Shown here: positions 4,320 through 59,321 of the stretch, one piece after another
Layout of the letters: each line of letters starts with the position of its first letter
Position numbering within the stretch: position 1 is the first letter of the stretch
Assembly (NCBI GenBank): GCA_026224825.1
Contig: JAMFRO010000093.1
Span: 4,946 to 68,945 of the forward strand
Reading direction: 5' to 3'
Length of the DNA stretch: 64,000 nt
Source of the DNA: a bacterium
GTDB lineage: Bacteria; Pseudomonadota; Alphaproteobacteria; Acetobacterales; Acetobacteraceae
Notes under the pieces: generated by a model
What the model saw: only the letters and a program-made list of their open reading frames with translations
Databases searched by the model: none
What the model was told of the DNA's origin: nothing
Position numbers and translations under genes: made by a program

Positions 4320-5669
4320 TTAGCCGGGCGTGCCGTCTGCGGCAACGCACGAGGCCAAACGCCTGGCCACAAGCTCCCGGCCGATGAGGGGTAAAAGCTT
4401 CGCCATTTCCGGCCCGTGCTCCTCGCCGGTGAGCGCCAGGCGCAAAGGCTGGAACAAATCCCGGCCTTTGGCGCCTGTGGCTTCGGAAATAACGGTGCTC
4501 CAGGGCTTCCACGTCGCCTCGTCCCAGGGCTCGGGCGGCAGGCTGTCCAGGGCGGCGCGCCATACGGGGATATGCGCCGGCAGTGCGGGGAGTATAAATT
4601 CGCCGGCCACCACCTCCCACCAGCGCCTGGCCTCGGTCAGCATGTCGATATTATCCCGAATCGCATTCCAGAATTTTGGCGTGGCACCCTCGGGCAGGCG
4701 GTCCTTTACGGCATCAAATTCAATATGGTGCAATAACTTACGGTTCAGCGCCACCAACTGGCGGGCGTCGAAACGCGGCGTAGAGCGTGAGAAATCCGAC
4801 AGCGAGAAGCTGGCGACGAGTTCGGGCAAGGGCAGGGGGGCAGGGTCTTTATTCGTGCCCAATCGCGCCAGGTACGAGGTGATGGCCCCCGGCTCGATGC
4901 CATCCTTGCGCAGGGATTTAAGCGAGATGGAGCCGATGCGCTTGGAGAGTTTCTCGCCATCCCCGCCGGAGATGAGCGGCAGATGCGCGAAACGCGGCAC
5001 CGGCTTTTTTGTAATCGCTTGAAACAGATCGATCTGCACGGCGGTGTTGGACACATGGTCCTCGCCACGGATGATATGCGTGATGTCCATATCCGCATCA
5101 TCCACCACCGAGGTGAAGGTATAGAGGGGCGAGCCGTCGGCGCGGATGAGCACCGGGTCCGACACCGTGCCGAGGCGAATATTGCGCGAACCCAGCACCA
5201 GATCGTTCCAGGAGGCCGCACCATCCGAGAGCTTGAAGCGCCAATACGGGCGCTTGCCGTTGGCCTCCGCCGTGGCGCGCTGCTCCGCCGTCATGTTCAG
5301 TGCCCCGCGGTCATAAATGGGGGGGAGCTTGCGCTTCACCAGTGCGGCGCGCTTGGAGGCCAGCTCGTCCTCGCCCTCGAAGCACGGATACAGCCGCCCG
5401 GTGGCTTTCAGCTGGTCGGCAACCTCCTCATAACGGGCAAACCGCTCGGATTGCTTGGCGTTCTCATCCCATTCAATCCCCAGCCAGCGCAGGTCGTCGT
5501 AGAGCCCCTGCTCAAACTCCGGCCGGCCGCGCTCGGTATCGGTATCGTCCAGCCGGAGGAGCAACCTCCCCCCCTCACGCCTGGCGAACAGATAATTCAC
5601 CAGCGCCGTGCGCGCATTACCAACATGCAGATACCCCGTGGGGCTGGGAGCAAACCGAACTTTTACCAT
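4320..5669 (-). CDS. gltX: glutamate--tRNA ligase
   Basis: Class I signature RFAPSPTGYLHVGNARTAL and KLSKR (KMSKS-type) motif. 449 aa. Confidence 0.9.
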   Translation of the reverse strand: MVKVRFAPSPTGYLHVGNARTALVNYLFARREGGRLLLRLDDTDTERGRPEFEQGLYDDLRWLGIEWDENAKQSERFARYEEVADQLKATGRLYPCFEGEDELASKRAALVKRKLPPIYDRGALNMTAEQRATAEANGKRPYWRFKLSDGAASWNDLVLGSRNIRLGTVSDPVLIRADGSPLYTFTSVVDDADMDITHIIRGEDHVSNTAVQIDLFQAITKKPVPRFAHLPLISGGDGEKLSKRIGSISLKSLRKDGIEPGAITSYLARLGTNKDPAPLPLPELVASFSLSDFSRSTPRFDARQLVALNRKLLHHIEFDAVKDRLPEGATPKFWNAIRDNIDMLTEARRWWEVVAGEFILPALPAHIPVWRAALDSLPPEPWDEATWKPWSTVISEATGAKGRDLFQPLRLALTGEEHGPEMAKLLPLIGRELVARRLASCVAADGTPG

Positions 5670-8587: not shown

Positions 8588-8635
8588 TCAATTTACGGCT
8601 CAATTTATGGCTCAATTTATGGCTCAATTTACGGC
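8588..8635. repeat. 4 x 12-bp perfect-phase tandem repeat TCAATTTAYGGC
   Basis: Read directly: tcaatttacggc tcaatttatggc tcaatttatggc tcaatttacggc. The last unit supplies the final codons and stop (A V N TGA) of the DUF805 gene at 8624..9193. Confidence 0.95.
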
Positions 8636-9193
8636 TTGCAAATCCTGTGTCGGGTCGGGTCCGAAGCGGTTGTCGCCAGTCGTGCCTTGTTTAAAAATTG
8701 CCACGAGGAAGCGTATCCAGCCGAAAAAAAGCAACAGGCAGAGCAGGGCCACCACCACAGCAATATCGCGGATGATGGTCACTATATCCGGTCTGTCCTG
8801 CAAGCGCAGCAGCGCCCCGCTCGTAACCGCCAGCACGGATATGAGCAGCGGCGCCCAGCCCAGCAGGCTGCACCAGCCGGAACGGTTCGTGTCATGCAGC
8901 CGCCGCACTGTCACCGCCAGCCCAGGCAGCAGGAATACGAGCCAGGTCACATTGCAGAGAGCGGCATATTTCTGCGTCAAGAACGCTGTGCCCATGAGTG
9001 GAAACCTCACCGCATCCGGTACCGCTAGGCCTATGCAGGTGACGGCGATCATGTTCAGCGCACTGCCGGCAAGCCATTGGAACAGCGCCCACCACCAGAA
9101 TTCCGCGCGCGGTGCCCGTCCCCGGAAATCTGCATATTTTCGGAGACAAAGCCGCACCGCGGCAAAAAAATCCAGTGGCGGGACGCTGTCCAT
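8624..9193 (-). CDS. DUF805 (YhaH/YhaI-like) inner membrane protein, long form
   Basis: Motifs FRGRAPRAEFWWWALF, VRRLHDTNRSGW and GDNRFGPDP, with an extra TM region inserted in the middle. Confidence 0.75.
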   Translation of the reverse strand: MDSVPPLDFFAAVRLCLRKYADFRGRAPRAEFWWWALFQWLAGSALNMIAVTCIGLAVPDAVRFPLMGTAFLTQKYAALCNVTWLVFLLPGLAVTVRRLHDTNRSGWCSLLGWAPLLISVLAVTSGALLRLQDRPDIVTIIRDIAVVVALLCLLLFFGWIRFLVAIFKQGTTGDNRFGPDPTQDLQAVN

Positions 9194-9196
9194 GGT

Positions 9197-9619
9197 TCAA
9201 AAATCGCTTAGCGGGTCGGCGCCAAAACGGTTGTTGCCGCGCGTGCCGCGCATGCAGAACCAGATCAGAACCATGATTGCCCCGATGACCGGCACGAGCA
9301 GGAAGAAGTACCACCAGCCGGATTTGTTCAGATCATGGAACCGCCGCACCGCCACAGCGATTGAGGGCAGAAATGTCGCCAGCGAGAAGAGCCCGTAAAC
9401 CAGGCTGACGATGCTATGGAACGCATCCGGCGGCGGCATCACGCCGGTGGCCTTGAATTGTGCTATATTCTGTATGCTGTGCGGCAGGATCACGCTTTCC
9501 GCGCCGAGGGCGACGATGATGATGAACAGCCCCCACCACCAATATTCCGAGCGCGTGGCCCGCCCCTGAAACGTGACGTACTTGCTGAGGCAAGTGCTGA
9601 TCGCATCGAAAAATCCCAT
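9197..9619 (-). CDS. DUF805 inner membrane protein
   Basis: Start trimmed to MGFFDAISTCLSKYVTFQGRATRSEYWWWGLF. Also VRRFHDLNKSGWWYF and GNNRFGADP. Confidence 0.75.
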   Translation of the reverse strand: MGFFDAISTCLSKYVTFQGRATRSEYWWWGLFIIIVALGAESVILPHSIQNIAQFKATGVMPPPDAFHSIVSLVYGLFSLATFLPSIAVAVRRFHDLNKSGWWYFFLLVPVIGAIMVLIWFCMRGTRGNNRFGADPLSDF

Positions 9620-9708
9620 TCTCAACTCCCCGTGGTTTTCGTTGTGCGATTCACCGGTACCAGGGTTGTGGCCGTTTGGTAATGATTTTTTCGTGTGCTG
9701 ACAGGAAT

Positions 9709-10158
9709 TTATGTGAAATACCCCGGCGGCCGCGGGTCGGTGCCGAAGCGGTTGCCGCCATCTGTGCCCTTGCGGCACAGCCAGGACAGCATGGTGAACC
9801 AGCCCAGCAGCGGGATGAGCCCGAAAAAATACCACCAGCCGGATTTGCCGATGTCATGCAGCCGCCGCACGGTAACGGCGGCGGTGGGCAATAACAGCGC
9901 CAGCGACGCCAGCGTGCCGATGAGCTGCACCGTTGCCTGGGTGGAATCGGCCGGTGGAATCGTCCCGGTGGTGATGGCGCTGGTCAGCTCCTGTATCTGC
10001 CGGGGCATGATCATGGCATCGAAAAACCCGGTGACGAGGCCCTGGAACAGCGACCACCACCAGAATTCTGAACGCGGCGCGCGCCCGGTAAACACAGCAT
10101 ATTTGCTGATGCAAATGCCGATCGCCTCGAAAAACCCAGGCGCCGTTGCCTTTTTCAT
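9709..10158 (-). CDS. DUF805 inner membrane protein
   Basis: FTGRAPRSEFWWWSLF, VRRLHDIGKSGWWYF and GGNRFGTDP. Third tandem paralogue. Confidence 0.8.
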   Translation of the reverse strand: MKKATAPGFFEAIGICISKYAVFTGRAPRSEFWWWSLFQGLVTGFFDAMIMPRQIQELTSAITTGTIPPADSTQATVQLIGTLASLALLLPTAAVTVRRLHDIGKSGWWYFFGLIPLLGWFTMLSWLCRKGTDGGNRFGTDPRPPGYFT

Positions 10159-10181
10159 ACTTATCCTTGGGCTCGCGTAAT

Positions 10182-13022: not shown

Positions 13023-15620
13023 TCATTTTTGCGCATGTCCGTCCTTGTTGAGCTCGTCCCGCAATTCATACAGCGCGTCCAGCGCCTCGCGCGGGGTCAT
13101 GGCATCCGGATTGAGCATGGCCAGGCGCAGCCGCAATGCCTCCTCGGAAGCCGAGACCGGCACTTCGATAGAGGCGAATAATGGCAGCGGAGAGGTTGCG
13201 GAAAGGTTGCGCTCGGCCGTTTTAAGCAGCATTTCCGCGCGTTTGGCGATGGTTTCCGGCACGCCGGCCAGCCTGGCCACATGCACGCCCCAGCTCTTCT
13301 GCGCCGCACCCTCGACCACCTCGTGCATGAACACGACCTCTCCCCGGAACTCTTTCACCCGCATCGTATGGGCTTTGAGCCGTGGCAATGCTTCGGTGAG
13401 CTGCGTTAATTCATGAAAATGTGTGGCAAATATGGCGCGGCAGCGGTTGCTGTTATGCAGGCTCTCCAGCACGGCCTGGGCAATGGCCAGACCATCCCGC
13501 GTGCCGGTGCCGCGGCCGATCTCATCGACGATGACGAAGCTGCGCGGCCCGGCCTGGTGCAGGATCGCCGCTGTCTCGATCATCTCGACCATGAAGGTGG
13601 AGCGGCCGGAGGCGAGGTCATCCGCCGCGCCCACGCGGGAGAACAGCCGGTCCACCAGGCCGAGGCGCATGGCATCCGCCGGCACCGGCAGCCCGGCCTG
13701 GGCCAGTATCACCAGCAGCGCGTTCTGGCGCAGGTAGGTGGATTTACCGGCCATGTTCGGCCCGGTGAGCAGCATGAGCCGCTGATGCGCGGAAAGCTCG
13801 CAGGCATTGGGGATGAAGCCCACACCCGGCGGGAGGGCGGCTTCGACCACGGGGTGGCGGCCGGATTCGATGTGGAACTCCGCATCCGCGCTCAGCTCCG
13901 GGCAGCAGAACCGGCCGGAGAGGGCGAGCTGCGCGGCGGATTGCAGCACATCGGCCAGCGCCAACGCCTCGGCACAGGCGGCCAGAGCCTCGGCCGCCGC
14001 CAGCACCTGTTTCACCAGCCAGGAGAACACCAGTTTTTCGCGCGAAGCTGCCCGCGCGGCGGCCTCCGATATGCGCTGGTCGAGCGTGGATAGCTCGGGG
14101 TGGGTGAAGCGCGCGCCATTGGCCATGCCCTGGCGCAGGATCAGCTCTGGGTTTTCCCGCAGCTTTTCCACGGCCACGGCGGGGGCCTCCAGCACGTAAC
14201 CCAGTTGCGCGTGGTGGCGGATTTTGAGCGAGGCCACGCCATAACGCTGCGCCAGCTCGCTCTGAAACTCGGCGATCACCCTGCGCGTGTCATCACGCAA
14301 CGCCCGCTCGGCATCCAGCTCGGGGTCAAACCCAGCCGCGATTGCCCCGCCATCCTCCAGTTTCAGCGGCGCCGGCTCGGCCAAGGCGCTTTGCAGCGTG
14401 GCCAGCAGCTCCGGTGTCGGGGCCAGAGCCGTGGCGGCTTCATCCAGCAACGCGGTGCCCGGCGGCAGCAATGTTTGCAGTCCCGCCGCCACATCCAGCC
14501 CGGATTTTATCGCCGCCAGATCGCGCGGGCTGGCCCGCCCCAGCGCGATCCGCCCCAAAGCCCGCGCCATATCCGGTGTGCCGCGCAAAGCGTTGCGCAC
14601 CAGCTCGGCCCGCCCGGAATCCCGTAACGACAGCCAGGCTGCCTGCCGCGCCAGCAGCGGCTCCAACTGGCACAAGGGCGCGGTAATCCACGATGCCAGC
14701 TTGCGCGCACCCGCAGGGCTCACCGTGCGCTTCACCGAACCCAGCAAACTCCCCGCCTCGGTGCCACCACGCGCGGATACCAGCTCCAGGCTCGCGCGCG
14801 TCGCCGCATCCATCGCCAGCCGCCCCGCCACACCGGCACTGGCTGGGTGGGAGAGCCGGGGCATAGCCCCCATCTGTGTGGCCGCGATGTAGCCCAGCAC
14901 CTGCGCCGCAGCCAAAGTCTCAGCGGCGGAGAAATCGCCAAACGCCTCCAGACTCGCCGCACCGAATTTCAGCGCCAGCTCCCGCCTTGCCGCCTCGGCC
15001 GATGCAGGCACCGCCATGGCGAGCCGCCCGGTGCTCACCCGGCGCGCCGTGAACCCGCCCAACTCCACGCTTTCAGGTGCCAGAATCTCAGCCGGGTCCA
15101 GCCGCCCCAGAATCGCCCCCAACCCCGCCGCATCCGTTGCCTCGGTCTCGAAAAGCCCGGTGGAAATATCGGCCCATGCTACACCAAGCGAAGAACCCTC
15201 CACCGCCACAGCCAACAGAAAATTAGCCCGCCCAGCCTCCAGCAGCGACTCCTCAGTCAGCGTCCCCGGCGTCACCAGCCGCACCACATCCCGCGCCAAA
15301 GGCCCCTTCGCTCCCCGCGCCTTGGCCGCCGCCGGATCCTCCATCTGCTCAACAATCGCCACCCGGAACCCGCGCCGGATCAGCCGCGCCAGATACATCT
15401 CAGCCTGCGAAACCGGCACCCCGCACATGGATACAGGCTGCCCCTGATGCGAACCCCGCGCCGTCAGCGCGATATCCAAAGCCGCACTCGCCGCCTGCGC
15501 ATCCGCAAAGAACAACTCGTAAAAATCGCCCATGCGAAAAAACAGCAAAGCATCCTCATGCCTCGCCTTAATGGCAAACCACTGCGCCATCGCCGGCGAT
15601 GCCCCTGCTGCGTCATTCAT
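13023..15620 (-). CDS. mutS: DNA mismatch repair protein MutS
   Basis: PAMAQWFAIKARHEDALLFFRMGDFYELFF N-terminus and Walker A TGPNMAGKST. Start placed at MNDAAG (ATG 15620). The 95-aa upstream extension of the 960-aa ORF runs through a repeat element. Confidence 0.9.
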   Translation of the reverse strand: MNDAAGASPAMAQWFAIKARHEDALLFFRMGDFYELFFADAQAASAALDIALTARGSHQGQPVSMCGVPVSQAEMYLARLIRRGFRVAIVEQMEDPAAAKARGAKGPLARDVVRLVTPGTLTEESLLEAGRANFLLAVAVEGSSLGVAWADISTGLFETEATDAAGLGAILGRLDPAEILAPESVELGGFTARRVSTGRLAMAVPASAEAARRELALKFGAASLEAFGDFSAAETLAAAQVLGYIAATQMGAMPRLSHPASAGVAGRLAMDAATRASLELVSARGGTEAGSLLGSVKRTVSPAGARKLASWITAPLCQLEPLLARQAAWLSLRDSGRAELVRNALRGTPDMARALGRIALGRASPRDLAAIKSGLDVAAGLQTLLPPGTALLDEAATALAPTPELLATLQSALAEPAPLKLEDGGAIAAGFDPELDAERALRDDTRRVIAEFQSELAQRYGVASLKIRHHAQLGYVLEAPAVAVEKLRENPELILRQGMANGARFTHPELSTLDQRISEAAARAASREKLVFSWLVKQVLAAAEALAACAEALALADVLQSAAQLALSGRFCCPELSADAEFHIESGRHPVVEAALPPGVGFIPNACELSAHQRLMLLTGPNMAGKSTYLRQNALLVILAQAGLPVPADAMRLGLVDRLFSRVGAADDLASGRSTFMVEMIETAAILHQAGPRSFVIVDEIGRGTGTRDGLAIAQAVLESLHNSNRCRAIFATHFHELTQLTEALPRLKAHTMRVKEFRGEVVFMHEVVEGAAQKSWGVHVARLAGVPETIAKRAEMLLKTAERNLSATSPLPLFASIEVPVSASEEALRLRLAMLNPDAMTPREALDALYELRDELNKDGHAQK

Positions 15621-15640
15621 GCGCCGGATAAAGCCACAGC

Positions 15641-15777
15641 AGGGAAGGAAGGCCAAGGGGCTTCGCCCCGTCGTGCGAATGCACGCCTCCGGCGTGACGA
15701 CCCCCACCAAGGGCCGAAGGGCCCTTGGATCCCACCCGGCATAGTAAAGGGGGGGAGGCCCCCTGGCCTTTTTCCTT
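15641..15777. repeat. palindromic mosaic element, copy E (core-less solo form)
   Basis: Terminal inverted AAGGAAGGCC / GGCCTTTTTCCTT. GC hairpins ggggcttcgcccc and gggggggaggccccc. Contains the 32-nt gtcgtgcgaatgcacgcctccggcgtgacgac motif and the caagggccgaagggcccttg hairpin, both shared with copies B, C and D. Confidence 0.7.
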
Positions 15778-15786
15778 GCTAAGGCT

Positions 15787-16347
15787 TTACCCGGCGATGA
15801 AGCCGCGCGGGCGGGGCCAGAACAAACCAGCGCGGGTGCGGTAGGCGGCGTAGGCGGCGGCGAGTTCGGAGTTGGCAAATTTGCGTTCCTCGCGGGTCGC
15901 TGCATCCAGGTACAGGGTTGTCATGATGGCTGGTGCCAGCCAGCCGGCGAGGCTGGGGGTGGCTATGGCGGTGCCGAACCAGAACAGCACGTAGGCCAGA
16001 TAGAACGGGTGGCGCACGTAGCGGTAGGGGCCGTGGTTGAGCAGGAAGTTCGGGCTGTCGTTGTCATAGGCGAGCGTTGGCGGTGTGCTGCGGCTGGCGA
16101 TGATGGCCGAGGCGAAGACCGCGAGCGAGGCCGTGAAGAGCACGAGGGCCGGGAGCCAAAGGCTGGAGGCGCCGTAGTGCAGGTGCCAGAGGAAGGCGAT
16201 GAACAGCGCGGTTGAGAGGCCGGTGGTGAGTTTCATGCCGGGTGGCATGTCGCCGGTGGAGCGGAAATGCGCTTTCACGCCCCAGCCGAAGGCGGCGAAG
16301 CAGATGGTGGCGTCAAAACCGGTGAGGATGGAAAAAAGAACGTGCAT
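15787..16347 (-). CDS. isoprenylcysteine carboxyl methyltransferase (ICMT/PEMT) family membrane methyltransferase
   Basis: Polytopic 186-aa protein with the family core HGPYRYVRHPFYLAYVLFWFG ... REERKFANSELAAAYAAYRTR. Confidence 0.7.
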   Translation of the reverse strand: MHVLFSILTGFDATICFAAFGWGVKAHFRSTGDMPPGMKLTTGLSTALFIAFLWHLHYGASSLWLPALVLFTASLAVFASAIIASRSTPPTLAYDNDSPNFLLNHGPYRYVRHPFYLAYVLFWFGTAIATPSLAGWLAPAIMTTLYLDAATREERKFANSELAAAYAAYRTRAGLFWPRPRGFIAG

Positions 16348-20326: not shown

Positions 20327-21100
20327 ATGAAAATCAGCTTCGTCGTCCCCGCCTATAATGAGCAGGTCCTGCTGCCCCGCTCCCTGCAAGCCATACGCGA
20401 TGAAATCGCGCGCGCTGGCCAGGTTCTGGGGCAGGATGCCGAGATCATCGTGGTGAACAATGCCAGTACGGACAACACGCGCGAGGTTGCATCCTCCATC
20501 GAGGGCGTGCGGGTGGTGGACGAACCCCGCAAGGGGCTGGTGCAGGCGCGCTGGTGCGGTTTCGCCCACTCCACCGGCGATCTCATCGCCAATATCGATG
20601 CCGATACCATCATCCCCCCCGGCTGGCTCACCGAGGTGCTGCGCCAGTTCGCGCGCACCCCCAAGCTGGTCGGTCTGTCCGGGCCATACGAATATTACGG
20701 CGTGCCGAAGCGGGTGAACCTGGTCGTCGGCGCCTATTACCACGCCGCCTGGCTGGCCTATGTCATCAACCACTACCTGCTCAACGTCGGCGCCATGCTC
20801 CAGGGCGGCAATTTCGTGGTCAAACGCGAGGCCATGCTGAAACTCGGCAACCCGGACCTGCGCTTCTCCTTCTATGGCGAAGACACCGACATGGCCAACC
20901 GCCTCTCCAAGGTCGGCCGCGTCATCTTCACCTTCCGCCTGCCAGCCCAATCCTCCGGCCGCCGCCTGGTCGGCGAAGGCGTGTTCACCATCGGCCTGCG
21001 CTACACCATGAACTTCATCTGGGCCACCTTCCGCAAACGCCCGTTCACCGAAGAATGGCAAGACATCCGCGAAGAGCCGGTTAAGGGCGGGGTGGTTTAA
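20327..21100 (+). CDS. glycosyltransferase family 2
   Basis: MKISFVVPAYNEQ start, NNASTDNT, and DAD motif (IANIDADTI). The last roughly 8 codons lie inside the terminal inverted repeat of element A. Confidence 0.8.
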   Translation: MKISFVVPAYNEQVLLPRSLQAIRDEIARAGQVLGQDAEIIVVNNASTDNTREVASSIEGVRVVDEPRKGLVQARWCGFAHSTGDLIANIDADTIIPPGWLTEVLRQFARTPKLVGLSGPYEYYGVPKRVNLVVGAYYHAAWLAYVINHYLLNVGAMLQGGNFVVKREAMLKLGNPDLRFSFYGEDTDMANRLSKVGRVIFTFRLPAQSSGRRLVGEGVFTIGLRYTMNFIWATFRKRPFTEEWQDIREEPVKGGVV

Positions 21101-21103
21101 AGG

Positions 21104-21125
21104 AAAAAGGCTGGGGCTCCGCCCC
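21104..21125 (-). terminator. candidate intrinsic terminator at the left end of element A (reads on the minus strand)
   Basis: Minus strand reads ggggcggagcccc followed by agccTTTTTcc. Confidence 0.4.
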
Positions 21126-21299
21126 TGACCCCGCTGGGGCCGCAGGCCCCAGACCCCTAGACTTTAAGGATATGAGAGAGGGGGGAATGCGCCCCATAGG
21201 TTTGTGAACATTGTTCACAAACCTATGGGGCGCATTCCCCCCTCTCTCATATCCTTTTAAAAGCTAATGGGGGTCCGGGGCCTGCGGCCCCGGCGGGTC

Positions 21300-21322
21300 C
21301 AGGGCAGAGCCCTGGCCTTTTT
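21300..21322 (+). terminator. candidate intrinsic terminator at the right end of element A
   Basis: cagggcagagccctg followed by gccTTTTTcc. Confidence 0.4.
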
Positions 21323-21341
21323 CCTTTAAACCACCCCGCCC

Positions 21342-22427
21342 CTAACCAGCTTTGCGCGGTTGTGCCTTGGGTTCGGCGACGGTCCATGCGGGGGTGGATT
21401 GGAGGGCTGGGCGGGCGGCGAGCCGGCTGGTTACGAACCACCAGCGGAAGAGCAGGTTTTCCAGCAATGTGCGGCGGCGGAAGCGCGGGCAGCGCAGGGC
21501 TGCGAGTTTGGCGCTGAGCCCGCCTTGCAGCCCGGCCTGCACCAGGCGCAGGTCTTGGCGTGCCTGTGGGGTCAGGCGCCCGGCCTGCTCCTCCAGCATA
21601 TCGGCATGGCGGTGCATCATGGTCATGTACACCATCGGCCCGCGCTGCAGTGCCGCCAGCGCGCGGAGGTGCAGCGGCTGGGCTCGGCCGATGAGGTTAT
21701 GCTTATGCAGCCGGTACAGTACCTGCGGCCGCTCATCGAATATTATGCGCCCGCCGCAGGCGGCGACCACGATATAGCTCCACCAATCATGCACGCTGCC
21801 GGCGGGATAGCCTGAAGTGGCCACCAGAGCGGCGGCGGTGGCGTTCATCACCAGCGTGTTGCCATTGGCGATATTCTGCGTCAGGCAGGCCGGAAACCCC
21901 GGCTGGTGGTCGTGCAGAATGGACAGATGCGCGCCGCCCAGATTCTCATCCACCAGATATTGCCGGGCGCAGTACAGCGCCGGCGCCTCACCGGCAGCTT
22001 CCAGCAGGGTAACGGCGTTGTCGAGTTTTTCCGGCAACCAGACATCGTCCTGATCGGCGAAAGCCACGGCCTCGGTGCCCAGCGTTTCGGACAGAAGGGC
22101 GAGAAAACTGCGTGCGGCCCCCAGATGCGGGCCGGAGGAGGTGGATTTAATGCAGCGCTGCGCCCCGATTTTCAGCGCAAAATCCCCCATGATGCTCAGC
22201 GTCTCGTCGGTCGAGCCATCGTCGCGCCAGTGCAGCACCCAGTTCTCATGGGTCTGCGCCAGAAAACTGTTCAACTGGGCATGCAGGAAGCGTTCGCCAT
22301 TATAGGTGGAGAGCAGAATGGCGACGGTGGTCGCCGGATGATGGGGCACGACCGGCAGCATCAACAGCAGCCCGCTGGCACGGCGCCGGGCGGGTGTCCG
22401 GCCGTGGACAGAAGGCGAAGCTGACAA
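21342..22427 (-). CDS. glycosyltransferase family 2 (rhamnosyltransferase-like)
   Basis: VAILLSTYNGERFLHAQLNSFLAQTHENWVLHWRDDGSTDET and ADQDDVW (DxD). The start may be the internal MLPVVPHH. Confidence 0.8.
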   Translation of the reverse strand: MSASPSVHGRTPARRRASGLLLMLPVVPHHPATTVAILLSTYNGERFLHAQLNSFLAQTHENWVLHWRDDGSTDETLSIMGDFALKIGAQRCIKSTSSGPHLGAARSFLALLSETLGTEAVAFADQDDVWLPEKLDNAVTLLEAAGEAPALYCARQYLVDENLGGAHLSILHDHQPGFPACLTQNIANGNTLVMNATAAALVATSGYPAGSVHDWWSYIVVAACGGRIIFDERPQVLYRLHKHNLIGRAQPLHLRALAALQRGPMVYMTMMHRHADMLEEQAGRLTPQARQDLRLVQAGLQGGLSAKLAALRCPRFRRRTLLENLLFRWWFVTSRLAARPALQSTPAWTVAEPKAQPRKAG

Positions 22428-29975: not shown

Positions 29976-30806
29976 ATGCGCGATTTTCGCGATGCCAAAG
30001 CCATGGCCCAGACCCTACGTGATAGTTTGAACAGCAAAACCGCCCCCATCAGCCCCCCCATCAGCCATAGTGAAAGCCTGGAGCTGGTCTCCAAAATGCT
30101 GGGACTGCAGGATTGGAATACATTATCGGCTCTGCTCCAGGCTGGGCAGCAGGAACCTTCAACCATAAAGCACCCGCAGGACACCGCCAGCTATCCAGCC
30201 ATTCCCGTGCGGGATTTCGTGCCATTTCCGGGGAGCTATTTTCCGCTTTTCATAGGGCGCGAGAAGACCAAGCAGGCGCTTGACCGCGCGTTTGCAAGCC
30301 ACCGCGAGGTGGTGCTTGCCGTGCAGCGGGATGAGTCCGTCGATGAGCCGGGCCAAGGCGATATTTACGAGCTCGGCGTGCTCGCCACCGTGATGGAGCT
30401 GCAGCGGCTGCCGGATGGCGTCGAGATTTTAGGCAAAACGCTTAACGCCGCAATGAAAATCATGCTGATGGCCACAAGGCGCGTCGCCATCCGCAAATTC
30501 ACGGGCGGGGCGGGGGCTTACCAGGCCGAAATCACGAATATCAGCGAGGGGCCGATTCCCGATGCGCTTGAACTCATTAGAAAGGCACTGGAAGGTTTCG
30601 AAGCCTATGCGGCAAAACACGATCTGGATATGCAGCGAATCCGTTCGACCATTGGTCAAAGCGACCCCGGACGGGTGGCGGACGTTATTTGTGCATTTGT
30701 AACGCTCCCGATCAACGACAAGCAGAGTTTGCTTGCCACACTCGACCCTGTAGCGCGGCTGGAAAAAATCATTGCCCTCATGGAGCGCAACCTGGCAACC
30801 GTTTGA
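29976..30806 (+). CDS. LON N-terminal (substrate-binding) domain protein with an extra N-terminal helical module
   Basis: IPVRDFVPFPGSYFPLFIGREKTKQALDRA...VLAVQRD...DIYELGVLATVMELQRLPDG matches the Lon N-domain pattern. No AAA+ or protease domain. The first roughly 55 aa (MRDFRDAKAMAQTLRDSL...SESLELVSKMLGLQDWNTLSA) form a module I recall from glyoxalase-superfamily proteins. Confidence 0.7.
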   Translation: MRDFRDAKAMAQTLRDSLNSKTAPISPPISHSESLELVSKMLGLQDWNTLSALLQAGQQEPSTIKHPQDTASYPAIPVRDFVPFPGSYFPLFIGREKTKQALDRAFASHREVVLAVQRDESVDEPGQGDIYELGVLATVMELQRLPDGVEILGKTLNAAMKIMLMATRRVAIRKFTGGAGAYQAEITNISEGPIPDALELIRKALEGFEAYAAKHDLDMQRIRSTIGQSDPGRVADVICAFVTLPINDKQSLLATLDPVARLEKIIALMERNLATV

Positions 30807-31036
30807 GGCGGGGGTGTTTCCACGGAAAAGGCCAGGGCTCTGCCCTGGACCCGCCAAGGGCCGAAAGGCCCTTGGATCCCGTAACTTAAGAATTGAAAAG
30901 GGCCCTGCCACCTAGCTGTTTTAACAGCTGGATGGCAGGGCCCTTTTCAATTCTTAAAAGCTAATGGGGGTCTGGGGCCTCAGGCCCCAGCGGGTCCAGG
31001 GCAGAGCCCTGGCCTTTTCCGTGGAAACACCCCGCC
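30807..31036. repeat. palindromic mosaic element, copy B (outer modules plus core type 2)
   Basis: Termini GGCGGGG(G)TGTTTCCACGGAAAAGGCCAGGGCTCTGCCCTGG are inverted at both ends. Core has perfect 25-bp arms, 30886..30910 / 30933..30957 (ttaagaattgaaaagggccctgcca). The element starts right after the TGA of the left gene and ends right before the TAA of the right gene. Confidence 0.9.
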
Positions 31037-32134
31037 TTAAAACAAATCGCCCAAATGCCGGTGGTGATTTGTATCGATGCTGATCTCCGTGCTCATCCCC
31101 GCCAGCAGCGGCAAATCAGCCGGACCGGAGAGAACCCGGATCCGCACCGGAATGCGCTGCACCACCTTCACCCAGTTTCCGGAAGAATTCTGCGCCGGCA
31201 GAATGGCGAATTCCGAGCCCGATGCCGGGGAAACACTCTCCACCTCGCCCTTCCATGTCTGGCCCGGATAGGTATCCACCGTAATGGTCACGCTCTGCCC
31301 CGGGCGCACCCAGGTAAGCTGGTCTTCCTTGGGCTGCGCGGTGATGAACACATCCTGGTCCGAGACCAGCCCGAAGGCGGCGGTGCCGGCCAGCAGGAAC
31401 ATGCCCGGCTGCAACTGCTCCACCTGCGTCACCGTGCCGGAGAACGGCGCCTTCACCACGGAATGGTCGAGATTGCGCTGCGCATCGCGCAGATCCGCAT
31501 CGGCCTGCTGGTATTCGGGCGTATCCTCGGGCTTGATGTCCGGATTGCCCTGCAGTTTCGTCAACTGCTGCCTTGCCGCCTGGTCAAGCTGGGTAAGATG
31601 CTGTTGGTCGGCTTCCAGCGTAAAGCGCGCATCGTCATATTGCGCGCGTGTCGCCCCACCTTTGGCCACCACGGCGGCATAGCGGGCGAGGTCGGCCTGG
31701 TCCTTCTCCACCTGCACCTTGGCCATCTCCACCTGTGCCGCGGCCTGGGCGTAGCTGTGCCTGGCGCCGTTTATGCTCTCAACCGATTGCGCCAGCGCCG
31801 CCTGGGCGCGCTCAACCGCTGTCTGATATGTTTCCTGGCCGATGCTGAACAGCGGCTGCCCCGCCGCCACATGCTGGTTATCCTTCACGTAAACCTGGTC
31901 CACCAGCCCGGATACATCCGTGGAGAGCGAGACCTTCGCGGCATCGACATAAGAATCATCGGTGGAGATGGTGGCACCGCCGCCCAGCCACATGAAAAAT
32001 GCCACCAGCAGCACGGCCAGCACGCCGCCGATCATCAACACCGGGCGCAGCAGCCGGCTGCGATTCACCCGGTTTACCGCGGCAAGCCCCGCACCGGCGT
32101 CCTGTTCCCGCCCCACAATATTCGCCTGCGACAT
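31037..32134 (-). CDS. HlyD/EmrA-family membrane fusion protein
   Basis: N-terminal TM, a long coiled-coil, and barrel motifs (TDDSYVDAAKVSLSTDVSGLV, APFSGTVT). Typical EmrA layout. Confidence 0.85.
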   Translation of the reverse strand: MSQANIVGREQDAGAGLAAVNRVNRSRLLRPVLMIGGVLAVLLVAFFMWLGGGATISTDDSYVDAAKVSLSTDVSGLVDQVYVKDNQHVAAGQPLFSIGQETYQTAVERAQAALAQSVESINGARHSYAQAAAQVEMAKVQVEKDQADLARYAAVVAKGGATRAQYDDARFTLEADQQHLTQLDQAARQQLTKLQGNPDIKPEDTPEYQQADADLRDAQRNLDHSVVKAPFSGTVTQVEQLQPGMFLLAGTAAFGLVSDQDVFITAQPKEDQLTWVRPGQSVTITVDTYPGQTWKGEVESVSPASGSEFAILPAQNSSGNWVKVVQRIPVRIRVLSGPADLPLLAGMSTEISIDTNHHRHLGDLF

Positions 32135-41695: not shown

Positions 41696-43429
41696 ATGGC
41701 TTCAACCACCTACGCCAGCCGTCATTCTGACGCCCCCACCTATTCCGGCCCGGACGATTTCGCGGCCCTCCTCGATGCCGCACTCGGTGCCGGCGCCGGG
41801 TTCGAAGGCTCCGTCGTCTCCGGCATCGTGCTCCGGATCGACGACGATTTCGTCATCGTCGATGTCGGCCTGAAATCCGAAGGCCGCGTCCCCCTCCGCG
41901 AATTCGCGCCCGTCGGCGCCCGTCCGGAAATCAACGCCGGCGATGTCTTCGACCTCTATATTGAGCGTTACGAAGACAAAGACGGCTCCATGGTGCTTTC
42001 CCGCGAGAAAGCCCGCCGTGAAGAGAGCTGGACCCAGCTTGAGAAGGCTTTTGAAGCCCAGACCCGCGTCAACGGCGTCATCCACGGCCGCGTCAAAGGC
42101 GGCTTCACGGTGGACCTCGGCGGCGCCACCGCGTTCCTGCCCGGTTCGCAGGTCGATATCCGCCCGGTCCGCGACGTCGGCCCCCTCATGGGCGTGTCCC
42201 AGCCCTTCCAGATCCTCAAAATGGACCGTCAGCGCGGCAATATCGTGGTCTCGCGCCGCGCCGTGCTGGAGGAAACCCGTGCGGAACAGCGCAGCGAGCT
42301 GATCCATGGCCTCAAGGAAGGCCAGATCCTCGACGGCGTGGTCAAGAACATCACCGATTACGGTGCGTTCGTGGACCTCGGCGGCGTGGACGGCCTGTTG
42401 CACGTCACCGACATCGCCTGGAAGCGCATCAACCACCCGGCCGAGGCCCTGGTCATCGGCCAGCCCGTCAAGGTGCAGGTCATCCGCTTCAATGCCGACA
42501 CCCAGCGTATCTCGCTCGGCATGAAGCAGCTCGAAGCCGATCCCTGGGAAGGCGTCGACGCCAAGTACCCGCCCGGCATCAAGGCCTCCGGCCGTGTCAC
42601 CAACATCACCGATTACGGCGCCTTCGTGGAGCTGGAAGCCGGCGTTGAAGGTCTCGTGCACGTCTCCGAAATGTCCTGGACCAAGAAGAACGCCCATCCC
42701 GGCAAGATCGTCTCCACTTCGCAGGAAGTCGACGTGGTTGTTCTCGATGTCGACGCCTCCAAGCGCCGCATCAGCCTTGGCCTGAAGCAGGTTGCCCGTA
42801 ATCCTTGGGAGGAGTTCCAGGACGAGCACCCGATCGGCTCCGAAGTCGAAGGCGAAATCCGCAACATCACCGAGTTCGGCCTGTTCGTGGCCGTCGGCGC
42901 GGAAATCGACGGCATGATCCACATGTCCGACCTCTCCTGGGAAGAAGCCGGCGAGGCCGCCATCGCGAAGTTCGAGAAGGGCGGCATCGTCAAAGCCAAG
43001 GTGCTCGACATCGACGTTGAGAAAGAGCGCATCTCGCTCGGCATCAAGCAGCTCGAAGTCGATCCCGCCGCCGGCGTGCTGGACAAGGTCCACAAGAACC
43101 AGATCGTCACCTGCGTGGTTACCGCCGTGCAGAGCAATGGCGTCGAGGTTAAGGTGGACGACGTGCTGACCGGCTTCATCCGCCGCGCCGAACTGGCGCG
43201 CGACAAAGCCGAGCAGCGCCCCGAGCGCTTCGCCATCGGCGATACAATCGACGCCAAGATCACGGCCGTCGACCGCGCCGCCCGCAAGCTCCAGCTCACC
43301 ATCAAGGGCAAGGAAATCGACGAGGACAAGCACGCCATCACCGAATACGGCTCGTCCGACTCGGGTGCTTCCCTCGGCGACATCCTGGGCGCCGCCATCC
43401 GCCGCCGGAACCAGGCGACGGACGAGTAA
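41696..43429 (+). CDS. rpsA: 30S ribosomal protein S1
   Basis: Six S1 (OB-fold) repeats, for example GVVKNITDYGAFVDLGGVDGLLHVTDI. 577 aa. Confidence 0.92.
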   Translation: MASTTYASRHSDAPTYSGPDDFAALLDAALGAGAGFEGSVVSGIVLRIDDDFVIVDVGLKSEGRVPLREFAPVGARPEINAGDVFDLYIERYEDKDGSMVLSREKARREESWTQLEKAFEAQTRVNGVIHGRVKGGFTVDLGGATAFLPGSQVDIRPVRDVGPLMGVSQPFQILKMDRQRGNIVVSRRAVLEETRAEQRSELIHGLKEGQILDGVVKNITDYGAFVDLGGVDGLLHVTDIAWKRINHPAEALVIGQPVKVQVIRFNADTQRISLGMKQLEADPWEGVDAKYPPGIKASGRVTNITDYGAFVELEAGVEGLVHVSEMSWTKKNAHPGKIVSTSQEVDVVVLDVDASKRRISLGLKQVARNPWEEFQDEHPIGSEVEGEIRNITEFGLFVAVGAEIDGMIHMSDLSWEEAGEAAIAKFEKGGIVKAKVLDIDVEKERISLGIKQLEVDPAAGVLDKVHKNQIVTCVVTAVQSNGVEVKVDDVLTGFIRRAELARDKAEQRPERFAIGDTIDAKITAVDRAARKLQLTIKGKEIDEDKHAITEYGSSDSGASLGDILGAAIRRRNQATDE

Positions 43430-43672
43430 AGAAAGGAAGGCGAGGGGGCTTTGCCCCCCTCGACCCCCCACTGGGCCTGAGGCCCAGACCCCATTAGTTT
43501 AAGAACTAAAAAGGGCCCTGCCTCCAAGCTGTTTCAACAGCCGGGGGCAGGGCCCTTTTTAGTTCTTAAGTAGCGGGGGTGTGGGGCCGTCACGCCGAAG
43601 GCGTGCTGCGCACGACGGCCCCACGCGGGGGTTAAGGGGGCAAGGCCCCCTTGCCTTTCTTACTTACTTGCC
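43430..43672. repeat. palindromic mosaic element, copy C (gamma-type outer modules plus core type 2)
   Basis: Starts immediately after the rpsA TAA. Core has perfect 24-bp arms, 43499..43522 / 43546..43569 (ttaagaactaaaaagggccctgcc), homologous to the core of copy B. The right module carries the expanded hairpin ggggccgtcacgccgaaggcgtgctgcgcacgacggcccc. Confidence 0.85.
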
Positions 43673-43744
43673 CGTGCCGGTCCCGGCTTAGGGCGGCCTT
43701 AAGCATTGGCCGTTACTGTGGGGTACGAGCCACGGGAGAGCCAT

Positions 43745-45415
43745 ATGGTTGGGGTGTTCAAATCTGCTGCGGCGCTGAATGCTTTGCGCCAGTCTTTTGC
43801 TGTCATCGAATTTGCGCCGGATGGCACGATTCTGGATTGCAATGCGTTATTCGAGCAGACGATGGGCTATGCGCGCGGCGCGATTGTCGGGCGGCATCAC
43901 CGCATGCTGGTTTCGCCGGATTACGCCAACGCCCCGGAATATACCGATTTCTGGCTCAAGCTGCGGGCTGGCAAGTTCGACACGGGCGAGTACCGCCGCA
44001 TGGCCAAGGGCGGGCGCGAGGTCTGGCTGCAGGCCAGCTACACCCCGGTACGCGGGCGCGGCGGCAAGGTGCTGAAAATCATCAAGCTGGCGCTCGACAA
44101 TACGGCTGCGCACCAGAAGGCGGCGGATGACCAGAGCCTCATCGGCGCCATCTACCGTTCGCAGGCGGTCATCGAGTTCATGCTGGACGGCACCATCATC
44201 CGGGCCAATGATAATTTCCTCAAGGCAGTCGGCTATGAGCGTGATGAGGTTGTCGGCAAAAAACATTCCATGTTCGCCGTACCCGGCTTCGCCGCCAGCG
44301 CCGAATACCGCGATTTCTGGCACAGGCTGAGCCGCGGCGAATTTGTCGTGGGTGAGTTCCACCGCGTCGGCAAAGGCGGGCGCGATGTCTGGCTGCAGGC
44401 CAGTTACAACCCGGTTTACAACGGCGCCGGGCAGATTGTGAAAGTCGTGAAATTCGCCATCGACCTGACCGAGGACATGCGCAATGTCGGGCTCGTCGGC
44501 GATGCTCTGGCCGGCCTTGCGAAAGGTGACCTGACGCTGAATGTGAAGGAAAAGCTTATTCCCTCGATGGAGAAGCTGCGCCTCGATTTCAACGCCTCCT
44601 CGCAATCGATGCGTGAGACCATGACCGCCATTTCCGAATCCGCCGCCATCATCAAGGACAGCGCGGGTGAGGTGAGCAAAACCGCAGACCTGCTCGCCCA
44701 GCGCACCGAGCGCCAGGCTGCTAATTTAGAGGAAACCGCGGCGGCGCTGGACAAGATCACCTCCACCGTACGCAAAACCGCCGAGGGTGCGGCCCAGGTG
44801 CGCGAGGTGGTGCGCAACGCCAAATCCGATACCGATACCTCCGGAATCGTGGTGGCCGAGGCGGTGGAGGCCATGTCGCGCATAGATTCCAGCTCGTCGC
44901 AAATCGCCAATATCATCGGCGTCATCGATGAGATCGCCTTCCAGACCAATCTCCTCGCCCTCAACGCAGGCGTTGAGGCCGCCCGCGCCGGCGATGCCGG
45001 GCGCGGCTTCGCGGTCGTCGCCACCGAGGTGCGCGCGCTCGCCCAACGCTCCGCCGATGCCGCGAAGGAGATCAAAACCCTCATCGCCACCTCCGGCCAG
45101 CAGGTCGCCGCCGGCGTTAAATCCGTGGGCGATGCACGGGCGGCCCTGGAGCGCATCGCCACCCATGTCATCAGCATCAACGATTCCGTCGTCAACATCG
45201 CAACCAGTGCCACCGAACAATCCGACGCGCTGAACCAGGTGAACCAGGCCGTGAACCAGATGGACCAGCTAACCCAGCAAAACGCCGCCATGGTCGAAGA
45301 AGCCGCCGCCGCCGCCCAAAGCCTGGCCAACGAAGCCACCGAAATCACCGAAAAACTAGGCCGCTTCAACACCGGCACAACCCGCCGGGCCGTGCGGGTG
45401 CGGGAGCTGGTTTAA
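43745..45415 (+). CDS. soluble methyl-accepting chemotaxis protein with two PAS domains
   Basis: Duplicated PAS blocks ([18 protein letters not shown] / [18 protein letters not shown], and [11 protein letters not shown] / [11 protein letters not shown]). C-terminal MCP signalling hairpin ([41 protein letters not shown]). No TM segment. Confidence 0.85.
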
Positions 45416-45418
45416 GGG

Positions 45419-45442
45419 AAAAAGGCCAGGGCTCTGCCCTGG
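45419..45442 (-). terminator. candidate intrinsic terminator at the left end of element D (minus strand)
   Basis: Minus strand reads ccagggcagagccctgg followed by ccTTTTTcc. Confidence 0.4.
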
Positions 45443-45640
45443 ACCCGCCGGGGCCTGAGGCCCCGGACCCCCATTAGCTTTTAGTGGGATAATGAGAGAG
45501 GGGGCGATACGCACCCCAGATCGTGGAGCTATTCCACGACCTGGGGTGCGTATCGCCCCCTCTCTCATTATCCCAAAAGTCTAGGGGTCTGGGGCCGTCA
45601 CGCCGGAGGCGTGCTTCGCACGACGGCCCCAGCGGGGTCA

Positions 45641-45662
45641 GGGGCGGAGCCCCAGCCTTTTT
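45641..45662 (+). terminator. candidate intrinsic terminator at the right end of element D
   Basis: ggggcggagcccc followed by agccTTTTTcc. Confidence 0.4.
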
Positions 45663-45665
45663 CCC

Positions 45666-45917
45666 TTAAAGCGCCTCCGACCCCGGCACCACCGGGCGGC
45701 TTTCGCGGCTACCGCGCATGCGTTTGTCGGGTTCTTTGGGGTCGTTAGGGGAGATTTCCACGTAGTCGTCGAACACGGCGAGGATGGTGCCGACGAAGGG
45801 GAAGTCGCCGAGTTCGGGCACGCGGTAGCTTACGGTATCACCTGGTTTGAAGGTGTCCGGGTTGAAGTTGAATTCGAACGGGCAGGCTTCACCCGCGGTT
45901 TGTCCCAAGTTTTGCAT
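45666..45917 (-). CDS. hypothetical small protein
   Basis: MQNLGQTAGEACPFEFNFNPDTFKPGDTVSYRVPELGDFPFVGTILAVFDDYVEISPNDP... No family recognised. Its stop lies inside the element D terminus. Confidence 0.4.
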   Translation of the reverse strand: MQNLGQTAGEACPFEFNFNPDTFKPGDTVSYRVPELGDFPFVGTILAVFDDYVEISPNDPKEPDKRMRGSRESRPVVPGSEAL

Positions 45918-46012
45918 TGCTGTTTCTCCGTATTCATCCGGTGTGCCGGAAGCTGGCGTCACGTTACAATATATAGTGGCTCATGGCGCCTGCTATTTGC
46001 AACGTGCGGGCG

Positions 46013-48340: not shown

Positions 48341-48432
48341 TTTTTTAGAAGCCGTTCTGGTGAGTCGTATCTGGTGAGTTTCGAGCACCGGAGCGCAGAA
48401 AATCGCCGCTAGACGGCCGCCAGAACGGCTTT

Positions 48433-55841: not shown

Positions 55842-56336
55842 TTAAAACGGAATCTCATCATCCAGATCATTGCTTGGCCGCGTATCCCAGCCGCCCACGG
55901 CCCGTGCCGGCTGTGCCGCTGCCGGTGCCCGCGCCGGGCTCGCCGCGCGCGGCGCATATTCCTCACCACCGCCAGCCCCGCTCCCGGCCCTATCCAGCAG
56001 CGTCAGCTCGCCGCCAAACCGCCCGATCAGCACTTCGGTGGTATATTTCTCCTGGCCCGACTGGTCGGTCCATTTGCGCGTCTGCAACTTGCCCTCGATG
56101 TAAACCTTCGAGCCCTTCTTCAGGTATTTCTCGGCCACATCGGCAATCCGGTCGTTCATAATAACGACGCGGTGCCACTCGGTCTGCTCCTTGCGCTCGC
56201 CGCTCATCTTGTCGTTCCAGCTATCGGAGGTCGCCACCGTGAGATTCACGATTTTGATGCCCGATTGCGCATTGCGAACCTCCGGGTCCTTGCCCAGATT
56301 CCCCACCAGGATCACCTTGTTCACACTACCAGCCAT
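55842..56336 (-). CDS. ssb: single-stranded DNA-binding protein
   Basis: [21 protein letters not shown], an OB fold, a Gly/Ala-rich linker and the C-terminal DDEIPF tip. Confidence 0.92.
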
Positions 56337-56440
56337 CCGGACCTCCTCAACCTACGATTGTTCAGTAAGCTTAACGCATCTGCCACAAATAAACCAGCGC
56401 CGCCTATTTGCTTTATGCCCGAACACCCCATATCCTGCAA

Positions 56441-56455
56441 GAACATTGCACGAAC
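56441..56455. promoter_or_regulatory. alphaproteobacterial SOS (LexA) box GAAC-N7-GAAC
   Basis: GAACattgcacGAAC, 14 nt upstream of the uvrA ATG in the ssb/uvrA divergent region. A third GAAC sits at 56421. Confidence 0.6.

Positions 56456-59306: not shown

Positions 59307-59321
<15 letters not shown>

Follow-up and report, generated by a model that had tools for sequence, protein, structure and literature searches.

The 64,000-nt (64-kb) stretch of Acetobacteraceae DNA analyzed here (the window; assembly GCA_026224825.1, contig JAMFRO010000093.1, positions 4,946 to 68,945) has a GC content of 62.3% and contains two convergent genes, on the + (20327-21100) and - (21342-22427) strands, both assigned by Pfam to glycosyltransferase family 2 (GT2). 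The gap between them is filled by a palindromic composite, e21. It is one of five related elements in the window (with e15, e30, e43 and e45), which represent a previously unnamed family of intergenic mosaic palindromic repeats that ranges over acid-loving Acetobacteraceae and is of a general kind that is already known. The protein content of the window comprises only housekeeping families according to Pfam {Der, BamB, GltX, GlnD, MutS, rml genes, LigA, RecN, S1, a methyl-accepting chemotaxis protein (MCP), AmtB and UvrA}; S1, the rpsA product, is 90-94% identical to Acidocella proteins, and the window organism is, as judged from its sequence, Acidocella-like.

An earlier reading of the window (the initial annotation) described one dyad-symmetric structure at 21075-21350. 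Such a structure is real, but its true span is wider (21063-21363) and reaches the stops of both genes: positions 21063-21138 pair with 21288-21363 (76 nt, 83% complementary), and the dyad takes in the final codons of the + strand gene with its TAA (21098-21100), as well as the TAG that ends the - strand gene (21342-21344). The perfect 45-bp arms around a single base that had been placed at 21166-21256 are borne out (core 1; arms 21166-21210 and 21212-21256, 45 nt each, 100% complementary, with a 1-nt centre), and the terminus, the hairpins H1 and H2 and the linkers are located in e21 as described. Folded as RNA, e21 (276 nt) forms a near-continuous single hairpin (-257.6 kcal/mol, z = -25.5). 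Its components, with the strand where one applies, are as follows.

21079-21103: left outer module O (GGTTAA + GGGCGGGGTGGTTTAAAGG); the + strand GT2 gene takes its final K G G V V and its TAA stop (21098-21100) from it; inverted repeat of 21323-21347
21101-21127, - strand: left A-run terminus AGGAAAAAGGC (21101-21111) and hairpin H1 (21112-21127); matches the arm pattern
21128-21151: linker ACCCCGC and left hairpin H2 (TGGGGCC GCA GGCCCCA; H2 at 21135-21151), as read from the sequence
21152-21165: left linker GACCCCTAGACTTT(AA), running into a TTTA/TTAA junction; 93% complementary to 45569-45596
21166-21256: core 1, a perfect 45+1+45 palindrome followed by TTTT, from inverted-repeat comparison
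21257-21298: right linker TTAAAAGCTAATGGGGGT, hairpin H2' (CCGGGGCC TGC GGCCCCGG; H2' at 21275-21293) and tag CGGGT(C); 88% identical to 30954-31033
21299-21324, + strand: hairpin H1' (CCAGGGC AGA GCCCTGG; 21299-21315) and CCTTTTTCC; exact arm-pattern match
21323-21347: right outer module O (CCTTTAAACCACCCCGCCC + CTAACC), within which the - strand GT2 gene has its TAG stop (21342-21344)

The complement of GACCCCCATTAGCTTTTAA forms the linker on the other side of the core, that of AGGAAAAAGGC lies at 21316-21324 on the right side, and the TAG of the - strand gene sits in GGTTAG followed by GGGCGGGG.

Four related mosaics had also been annotated, at 15641-15777, 30807-31036, 43430-43672 and 45411-45670. 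All are present, with the following measured limits and composition.

15641-15777: e15, truncated mosaic with A-run, H1 variant, insert module M (GTCGTGCGAATGCACGCCTCCGGCGTGAC), H2a, no core, H1' variant and T-run; PEMT-like gene on one side, mutS on the other
30801-31043: e30, full composite O / H1 / H2a / core 2 / H2b / H1' / O', between a Lon-N-domain gene (TGA 30804-30806) and an HlyD-family gene (stop 31037-31039)
43427-43672: e43, composite immediately behind the rpsA stop codon; contains core 2 and has module M within the loop of its right H2 (repeat comparison and Pfam)
45405-45675: e45, composite with core 1b and with module M in the right H2, between the MCP gene (TAA 45413-45415, within GGTTTAAGGG) and a small - strand open reading frame (ORF; 45666-45962)

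Core 2 of e30 is an A-run / GC stem / T-run palindrome, and e45 carries a second copy of core 1 (45485-45575, 43-nt arms, 98%). Positions 21250-21333 and 45408-45491 are 93% identical over 84 nt, and 30955-31018 and 45420-45483 are 97% identical over 64 nt. The H2 hairpins of e30 differ between its arms (left, CAAGGGCC...; right, TGGGGCC...) while the local hairpins are near-perfect, and its RNA fold is therefore a long stem with a three-way junction at its top (z = -20). A pattern for the arm, GGGCRGAGCCCYRGCCTTTTYC (22 nt, ≤3 mismatches), has 7 matches in the window against 0.00 expected, all of them inside the five elements and none solitary or within genes; this count and the z value of e21 exclude chance, in line with the annotated view that the repeats are too dense and too structured for it.

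The longest ORF of mutS (13023-15905) extends through e15 into the upstream gene, and the ATG at 15620 is most likely the true start; elements such as e15 can make gene calls overextended. The family would offer an annotation model for blocks of ~0.2-0.3 kb in Acetobacteraceae that are left unexplained or over-called as ORFs. The small - strand ORF whose stop codon abuts e45 is conserved (98 aa, no Pfam match), with an orthologue in L086 (2250-2513), and is absent from L084 and L085 (L-numbers designate loci from other genomes that were compared with the five window copies).

Tagged hairpin arms across the Acetobacteraceae

Each arm of the family consists of two tandem GC-rich units, H2 then H1, each with an unpaired GGGTC tag and a hairpin (H1, 17 nt; H2, 17-21 nt; each plus its tag), and ends in GCCTTTT(T)CC; the units are repeated and intergenic. 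Two such arms are inverted around a variable palindromic core, with an arm-pair complementarity of 83-93% (terminal inverted repeats are present) and an optional, stop-codon-bearing outer GC palindrome O. In full, the first half runs from a stop codon through the optional O (GGGGYGKTTCCACGG or GGGCGGGGTGGTTTAAAGG), an A-run ending in GGC, H1 (CCAGGGC-TCT-GCCCTGG), GACCCGC and H2 (free in sequence) to GA(T/C)CCC and a linker; the second half comprises the variable palindromic core, a linker, GGGGGTC, H2', GCGGGTC, H1', CCTTTT(T)CC, O' and the opposing gene's stop codon. The optional module M (28 nt, GTCACGCCGRAGGCGTGCTKCGCACGAC) occupies the H2 loop in the right arms of e43 and e45, and in e15, L006, L034 and L038 it separates hairpins. 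The two arms of an element may differ, although local hairpins are all near-perfect. Loci elsewhere form a size series from H1 alone with A/T-runs (L007, L043, L012) through H1-H2-H1' (L036) to full composites.

The hairpins are preserved while their sequences change. When arms were anchored on H1 and the T-run only, with no preselection for hairpins, a perfect hairpin of ≥6 bp was found directly upstream of H1 in 105 of 127 unique arms (38 different stems; shuffled controls, 6.4), and 97 of these 105 H2 hairpins end 2-3 nt ahead of the GGGTC anchor. A MAFFT alignment of 45 arms shows that 7 of 8 H2 pairs have changed on both sides, and slid controls collapse; these 45 arms were preselected for perfect hairpins, so that their 100% pairing is circular and the covariation alone is informative. 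H1 of partner arms, unconstrained by the scan pattern, also varies with compensation (CCAGGGC/GCCCTGG, CGAGGGC/GCCCTCG, TTGGGGC/GCCCCAA). We regard both the architecture and the hairpin covariation as firm.

Such covariation could be taken to mean that the selected product is RNA, the 200-280-nt hairpins acting as 3'-untranslated-region elements for processing or stability (RNase III substrates, cf. Neisseria Correia repeats) or as small RNAs, with terminator likeness secondary. We consider this improbable, since DNA hairpins predict the same covariation, and both-strand symmetry and variable cores speak against a specific RNA gene; on its side are the extreme folding of e21 (z = -25.5) and e30 (z = -20), the hairpins kept by covariation, and a location just past stop codons, from which co-transcription would follow. 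The lack of an Rfam family match also counts against an RNA product: the whole window has 0 matches at the gathering threshold, and E-value mode returned only generic long-hairpin models (mostly microRNA precursors), all under the gathering score. That H1 is conserved family-wide and paired inside terminators is reminiscent of DNA uptake sequences, i.e., a short motif kept as inverted pairs in terminators that promotes uptake of own-species DNA, as in Neisseria. We think this very improbable, because the conserved unit greatly exceeds a 10-12-mer in length and in structure, the seven window matches are confined to the five elements, and cultured Acidocella lack the motif over 20-kb stretches.

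The arm module occurs at no fewer than 79 loci (≥79) in a species-representative genome collection, nearly all of them, among the matches listed, in Acetobacteraceae. Listed carriers of the arm pattern are Acidocella, Acidiphilium (including A. rubrum ATCC 35905), Rhodopila, Lichenicoccus, Neoroseomonas, Limobrevibacterium and many metagenome-assembled genomes (MAGs) of Acetobacteraceae or Rhodospirillales, with >20 loci in one Acidocella MAG. Full composites are 80-87% identical to e30 (e.g., 86.8% over 228 nt for L076 3651-3870, from another species). Several other genomes contain loci that match arms of 53-58 nt at 100% identity, whereas coding DNA shared with relatives is only ~67-87% identical, and arms of 55-60 nt are 93-100% identical across genera. 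Cross-genus dispersal is firm, and the copies are not confined to the window; such confinement is what the initial annotation had named as fatal to its proposal. Its choice of e21 as the archetype does not hold: core 1 was met only in this window (e21 and e45), with no further copy in the loci retrieved or in a metagenome scan (two matches to ATGAGAGAGGGGGSRATRCGC are unrelated chance matches), and the e30 type is the common form elsewhere.

No copy lies within 20 kb around rpsA in the cultured Acidocella GCA_000306035, GCA_000687875 and CP110774, which indicates that expansion of the family was limited to some lineages. Nothing supports an origin in phages or plasmids: a scan of viral contigs with the arm pattern gave 0 matches, and the only match in a plasmid search with e30 was a 55-nt arm on a Rhodovastum plasmid. 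Pattern matches in Branchiibius (two) and in a Binatia MAG show no arm by a looser consensus and are probably due to chance; MAGs labelled Janthinobacterium carry full arms, hence real copies, and mislabelling of these MAGs is suspected. An assembly artefact is excluded, since the same elements are present in numerous independent assemblies, some of them complete chromosomes or contigs of Mb scale. Near-perfect palindromes of 240-280 bp are usually unstable in bacteria, and the means by which these hosts put up with dozens to hundreds of copies can be put to the test.

Element ends, stop codons and orthologous sites

Gene context was counted on a gene map weighted by GC content at third codon positions (GC3), since picking ORFs by length only is too noisy in GC-rich DNA. 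On this basis, 93 of 135 arm ends face a neighboring gene's stop codon, with a median gap of 18 nt (for 60 of them it falls between -10 and +30 nt), and three of the four convergent gaps in the window are wholly filled by elements. For e21, the + strand GT2 protein has 257 aa, compared with 249-252 aa in most homologues, and ends in EEPVKGGVV*, compared with EEPVAE* in L097 and EELS* in L091 and L092; its last codons and its stop thus come from module O. It is firm that the elements fill the 3' intergenic spacer flush with stop codons and, in e21, supply them. These repeats rewrite the C-termini and stop codons of housekeeping genes.

The terminal modules are terminator-like, a feature absent from the initial annotation. 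Arm termini are the top-listed terminator-like sites in the 14-32 kb region, with 5-6 G-C pairs and pointing outwards. The left end of e21, read on the - strand, is a GC hairpin followed by a T-run (scan site 21125-21113, GGGGCGGAGCCCC AGCCTTTTTC), terminator-like for leftward transcripts; a + strand site at 21299-21315 is terminator-like for rightward ones. The cores of e30 and e43 are classic A-run / GC-stem / T-run palindromes. A transcript from either side would therefore meet two terminators, with a stem and U-run at the core and then again at the far arm. From these sequence features we infer terminator activity, and an element may be a double terminator, portable and bidirectional, that also forms a stable hairpin at the 3' end. 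If so, gene-end signals would be spreading as mobile DNA.

The exact GT2 and rpsA products of the window have no match on record, and orthologous loci were reached through homologues of the window proteins. The order GGDEF/EAL - L36 - GT2(+) - GT2(-) - rmlD - rmlC is conserved in relatives, where the GT2/GT2 spacer takes the following forms.

L092-L095: 10 bp (GCAGCTTTCG), empty
L097: minimal hairpin (TAAAAGCCGTCAGACGGCTTTTTCA)
L096: 72-bp AT-rich palindrome of another family (2272-2343)
L091: 283-bp composite with outer and core modules unlike those of e21

Including e21, this orthologous site has five states and shows presence/absence polymorphism. Sites of this kind offer natural examples of one intergenic site cycling among empty, minimal-terminator and several unrelated palindromic states.

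Downstream of rpsA, plain terminators (e.g., ACCCGGCGGCGAAAGCTGCCGGGTTTTTTT) occupy exactly the position of e43 in L080-L085 and L087. In the window, complete elements (e43 and e45) bracket a PAS-MCP chemotaxis gene (43706-45415). The closest relative, L086 (rpsA, 87% nucleotide identity), has a single hybrid element after rpsA (2054-2250), in which the left arm and core match e43 and the right arm and flank match e45, and the MCP gene is absent. Other Acidocella keep the rpsA-MCP arrangement without elements, and a deletion between e43 and e45 is therefore the simplest reading of L086, where the hybrid marks a gene-loss junction. The L086 core has many compensated changes relative to that of e43 and is the same as an allele in L035, which suggests module replacement, not gradual change in place. 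Both turnover at orthologous sites and element-mediated rearrangement are firm.

The module swapping seen directly in L086 could be accommodated if the repeats were structural sites maintained by the host: hairpins bound by a host protein (a nucleoid protein, gyrase or an RNA-end factor) together with terminators, vertically inherited and copied by recombination or gene conversion without transposition. The BIMEs (bacterial interspersed mosaic elements) of E. coli are bound by integration host factor and gyrase, linkers and loops are conserved across genera here, and no transposase was found next to arms in the ~720 kb that the window and all retrieved loci make up. We judge the explanation unlikely, because recombination alone cannot seed a new site without homology, while the GT2 site is empty in one lineage and has three unrelated fillings in others, and because 58 nt at 100% identity between genomes whose genes are ~70% identical point to recent spread.

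Two side observations concern gene order around elements. In L084/L085 (1-2600), an MFS transporter gene comes after the HlyD-family gene within one operon, and the corresponding position in the window (30801-32134) has e30 and the convergent Lon-N-domain gene; here, again, an element lies at a synteny break. In L032 (5622-6631) and L023 (3502-4408), left and right arms stand 0.85-0.95 kb apart around small genes, encoding an SCP2-domain protein and a 176-aa protein without a Pfam match, neither with a transposase domain; arms can therefore bracket gene-sized DNA.

Known repeat families and the spread of copies

That the family could not be recognized as any named one agrees with the Rfam result and with the literature, in which no paper naming this Acetobacteraceae repeat was found (coverage was incomplete). 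A match to a described REP, MITE or IS-derived family, the other outcome that would have refuted the initial annotation, thus did not turn up, and its interpretation is supported. The closest likeness is to repetitive extragenic palindromic (REP) sequences, BIMEs and REPINs (REP doublets forming hairpins) of Enterobacteria and Pseudomonas, which are also GC-rich short hairpins with a conserved unpaired tag and covarying stems, form mosaics of fixed-orientation clusters with conserved linkers, and lie at extragenic 3' ends between convergent or tandem genes, often touching or supplying a stop codon. The present elements differ in having a GGGTC tag instead of GTAG or CGTC, two tandem units per arm, a long variable palindromic core, near-perfect dyads of 240-280 bp and A/T-run ends that make terminators, and no REP-associated tyrosine transposase (RAYT) was found in the sequence examined. 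A survey of REPs found termini that supply stop codons and REPs nested in small GC palindromes, both of which are met again here, and reported Acetobacteraceae among the alphaproteobacterial families in which CGTC-tagged REPs are missing (PMC3733652); a large structured repeat family is now added to this bacterial family. CGTC-tagged REPs are defined by the CGTC tag, an 8-9 bp stem starting with A/T pairs, a 4-5 nt loop and a CCA tail (PMC3733652; Di Nocera 2013). The elements described here have the tag GGGTC, stems of 6-9 bp, loops mostly of 3-4 nt and a GCG tail; across 138 arms, each stem is preceded by G(C/G)GGGTC or GG(A/T)TC. Module M alone has CGTC...GACG ends, and its stems are just 5-6 bp.

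Correia repeats (Neisseria) and RUP (repeat unit of pneumococcus), i.e., TA-type miniature inverted-repeat transposable elements (MITEs) of the IS630 kind, share with our elements a size of 100-300 bp, terminal inverted repeats, TA junctions, dispersal with presence/absence polymorphism, co-transcription with neighbors, long hairpin folds and possible terminators. Here, unlike in those MITEs, the arms are hairpin arrays, elements are nested in one another's centres and placement is almost always flush with stop codons; no parent insertion sequence (IS) was found and no clean target duplication is seen. Compared by description, RIME (Rhizobium-specific intergenic mosaic element) and Sm-repeats of the Rhizobiales are likewise alphaproteobacterial intergenic mosaics of large palindromes, modular and without a linked transposase; they occur in another host family, and RIME are ~100-150 bp long and not known to have terminators at their ends or to adjoin stop codons. 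Intrinsic terminators of the ordinary bidirectional type share the A-run / GC stem-loop / T-run pattern and the positions (relatives have plain terminators at the e43 site), but are locus-specific in sequence, whereas these elements are repeated, conserved across genera, 5-8 times longer and stacked two per direction. Finally, the GTAG-23 REPs of Thermomicrobium roseum lie within small CCGSSCC(n3-4)GGSSCGG palindromes (PMC3733652), a small palindrome in a GC-rich mini-hairpin loop exactly like module M in the H2 loop of e43 and e45; their sequences and tag differ, and nesting here is three to four levels deep.

Other classes were rejected. Integron attC sites would have GTTRRRY / RYYYAAC core sites behind co-oriented cassette genes beside an integrase, whereas the flanks here are GGTTAAGGG / CCCTAACC (seventh base G, not Y), the neighbors are convergent housekeeping genes (rpsA, mutS) and no integrase lies in the window; CRISPR arrays and tRNA or tmRNA were excluded on the sequence itself.

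On balance, e21 is probably, if not strongly so, one copy of a non-autonomous REP/BIME- or MITE-like family of mosaic palindromes of Acetobacteraceae that serve as portable bidirectional terminators, are nested at TA/TTAA and are reshuffled by recombination. The nesting is suggested by the junctions. Five of ~8 core-less copies have a single central TTAA, within ACTTAAGT-like centres (L006, L021, L026, L034, L037), and in copies with a core, the core is flanked on either side by TTAA or TA (...AAC-TTAA-[core]-TTAA-AAGC... or GGGT-TA-[core]-TA-ACCC). e21 is bounded by TA at its outermost level (TA-AGGGCGGGG...CCCCGCCCC-TA) and at its middle level (TA-AAGGAAAAAGGC...GCCTTTTTCCTT-TA), and its inner level is TTTA-AGGATATG...CATATCCT-TTTA. 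A new palindrome would insert at TA/TTAA in the centre of an older one, so that e21 may have been built in the order O, arm pair and core 1, each TA-bounded. The mobilizing enzyme would act in trans from outside the window, and the mosaics would subsequently be reshuffled by recombination and gene conversion between copies, as shown for the rpsA locus. TA-bounded levels would fit a TA-duplicating cut-and-paste enzyme, and we tentatively suggest, as a possibility short of an even chance, a TA-targeting transposase of this type (IS630/Tc1-mariner-like or IS5-like); an HUH/RAYT-like enzyme seems to us rather doubtful.

Several observations weigh against this reading of e21 as a nested non-autonomous repeat. 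TA is palindromic and part of TAA and TAG, such that TA flanks are indistinguishable from an extended inverted repeat or from stop codons, and empty and filled GT2/GT2 sites show no clean target duplication. Cores were never met outside arms in the loci scanned, which is odd for independent transposons. No transposase of any kind adjoins arms in the ~720 kb and no parent IS with matching ends was seen: inverted pairs of arms or core ends 0.7-3 kb apart enclose no transposase, and the only two arm pairs at such distances that enclose anything hold small passenger genes. Because every hairpin recurs in direct orientation as its partner in the opposite arm, deletion can generate smaller forms, and those observed could be such products instead of earlier stages. 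Also, the element U-runs are short (4-5 residues), and the loci were gathered with an H1 pattern, so that H1 conservation is partly by construction.

REPINs or BIMEs proper would account for some of these points, with the GGGTC-tagged hairpins as REP units moved single-stranded by a RAYT-type (HUH, Y1) transposase encoded once elsewhere, the mosaics as unit clusters, and no target duplication. In its favour are a conserved 5' tag that stays unpaired on every hairpin, stems free in sequence within a conserved structure, arms that occur as inverted pairs, and the extragenic placement flush with stop codons that is reported for GTAG REPs (PMC3733652); the orthologous GT2 site without clean target duplication and the T. 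roseum REPs within small GC palindromes (PMC3733652) are consistent with it as well. The tag is, however, neither GTAG nor CGTC, the recurrence of TA/TTAA junctions at every nesting level is not predicted by a Y1 mechanism, and a phmmer search with E. coli RayT against ORFs of ≥80 aa from the window and all loci gave no match at E up to 10. That search and the Pfam content also confirm that the window contains no transposase, RAYT or integrase, as had been annotated. We hold such REPINs or BIMEs to be an unlikely explanation. Similarly speculative is a structure-targeted mobile element that inserts only at the TA/TTAA of hairpin tips, so that palindromes would grow from the centre outwards, level by level. 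It may bring a complete portable gene end, with stop codons (TA and the element's first G or A giving TAG or TAA) and double bidirectional terminators, and would land in last codons and cross genera by means of an enzyme not yet linked to any repeat family.

Other repeats in the window

Three tandem direct repeats at 8624-10180 (440-560-bp period, 67-83% identical) are tandem paralogous genes for DUF805 membrane proteins. A second palindromic repeat, AT-rich around a GC hairpin (GGGGCATGGGCTGTGG...CCACAGCCCATGCCCC), lies at 59328-59438 downstream of a uvrA-like gene (56172-59321). The 72-bp palindrome at the GT2/GT2 site of L096 contains the motif ATAAAAGTTTTTGGTG of this repeat as the reverse complement, and these two occurrences therefore point to a second dispersed family of terminator-like repeats. 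A third palindromic intergenic repeat (TTTTAGAAGCCGTTCTGG...CCAGAACGGCTTT around GAGCACCGGAGCGCAGAAAATCGCCGC) is located at 48343-48432, upstream of a convergent ammonium-transporter gene, and has a 43-nt match (93%) in a different intergenic region of L086 (~4880-5040).

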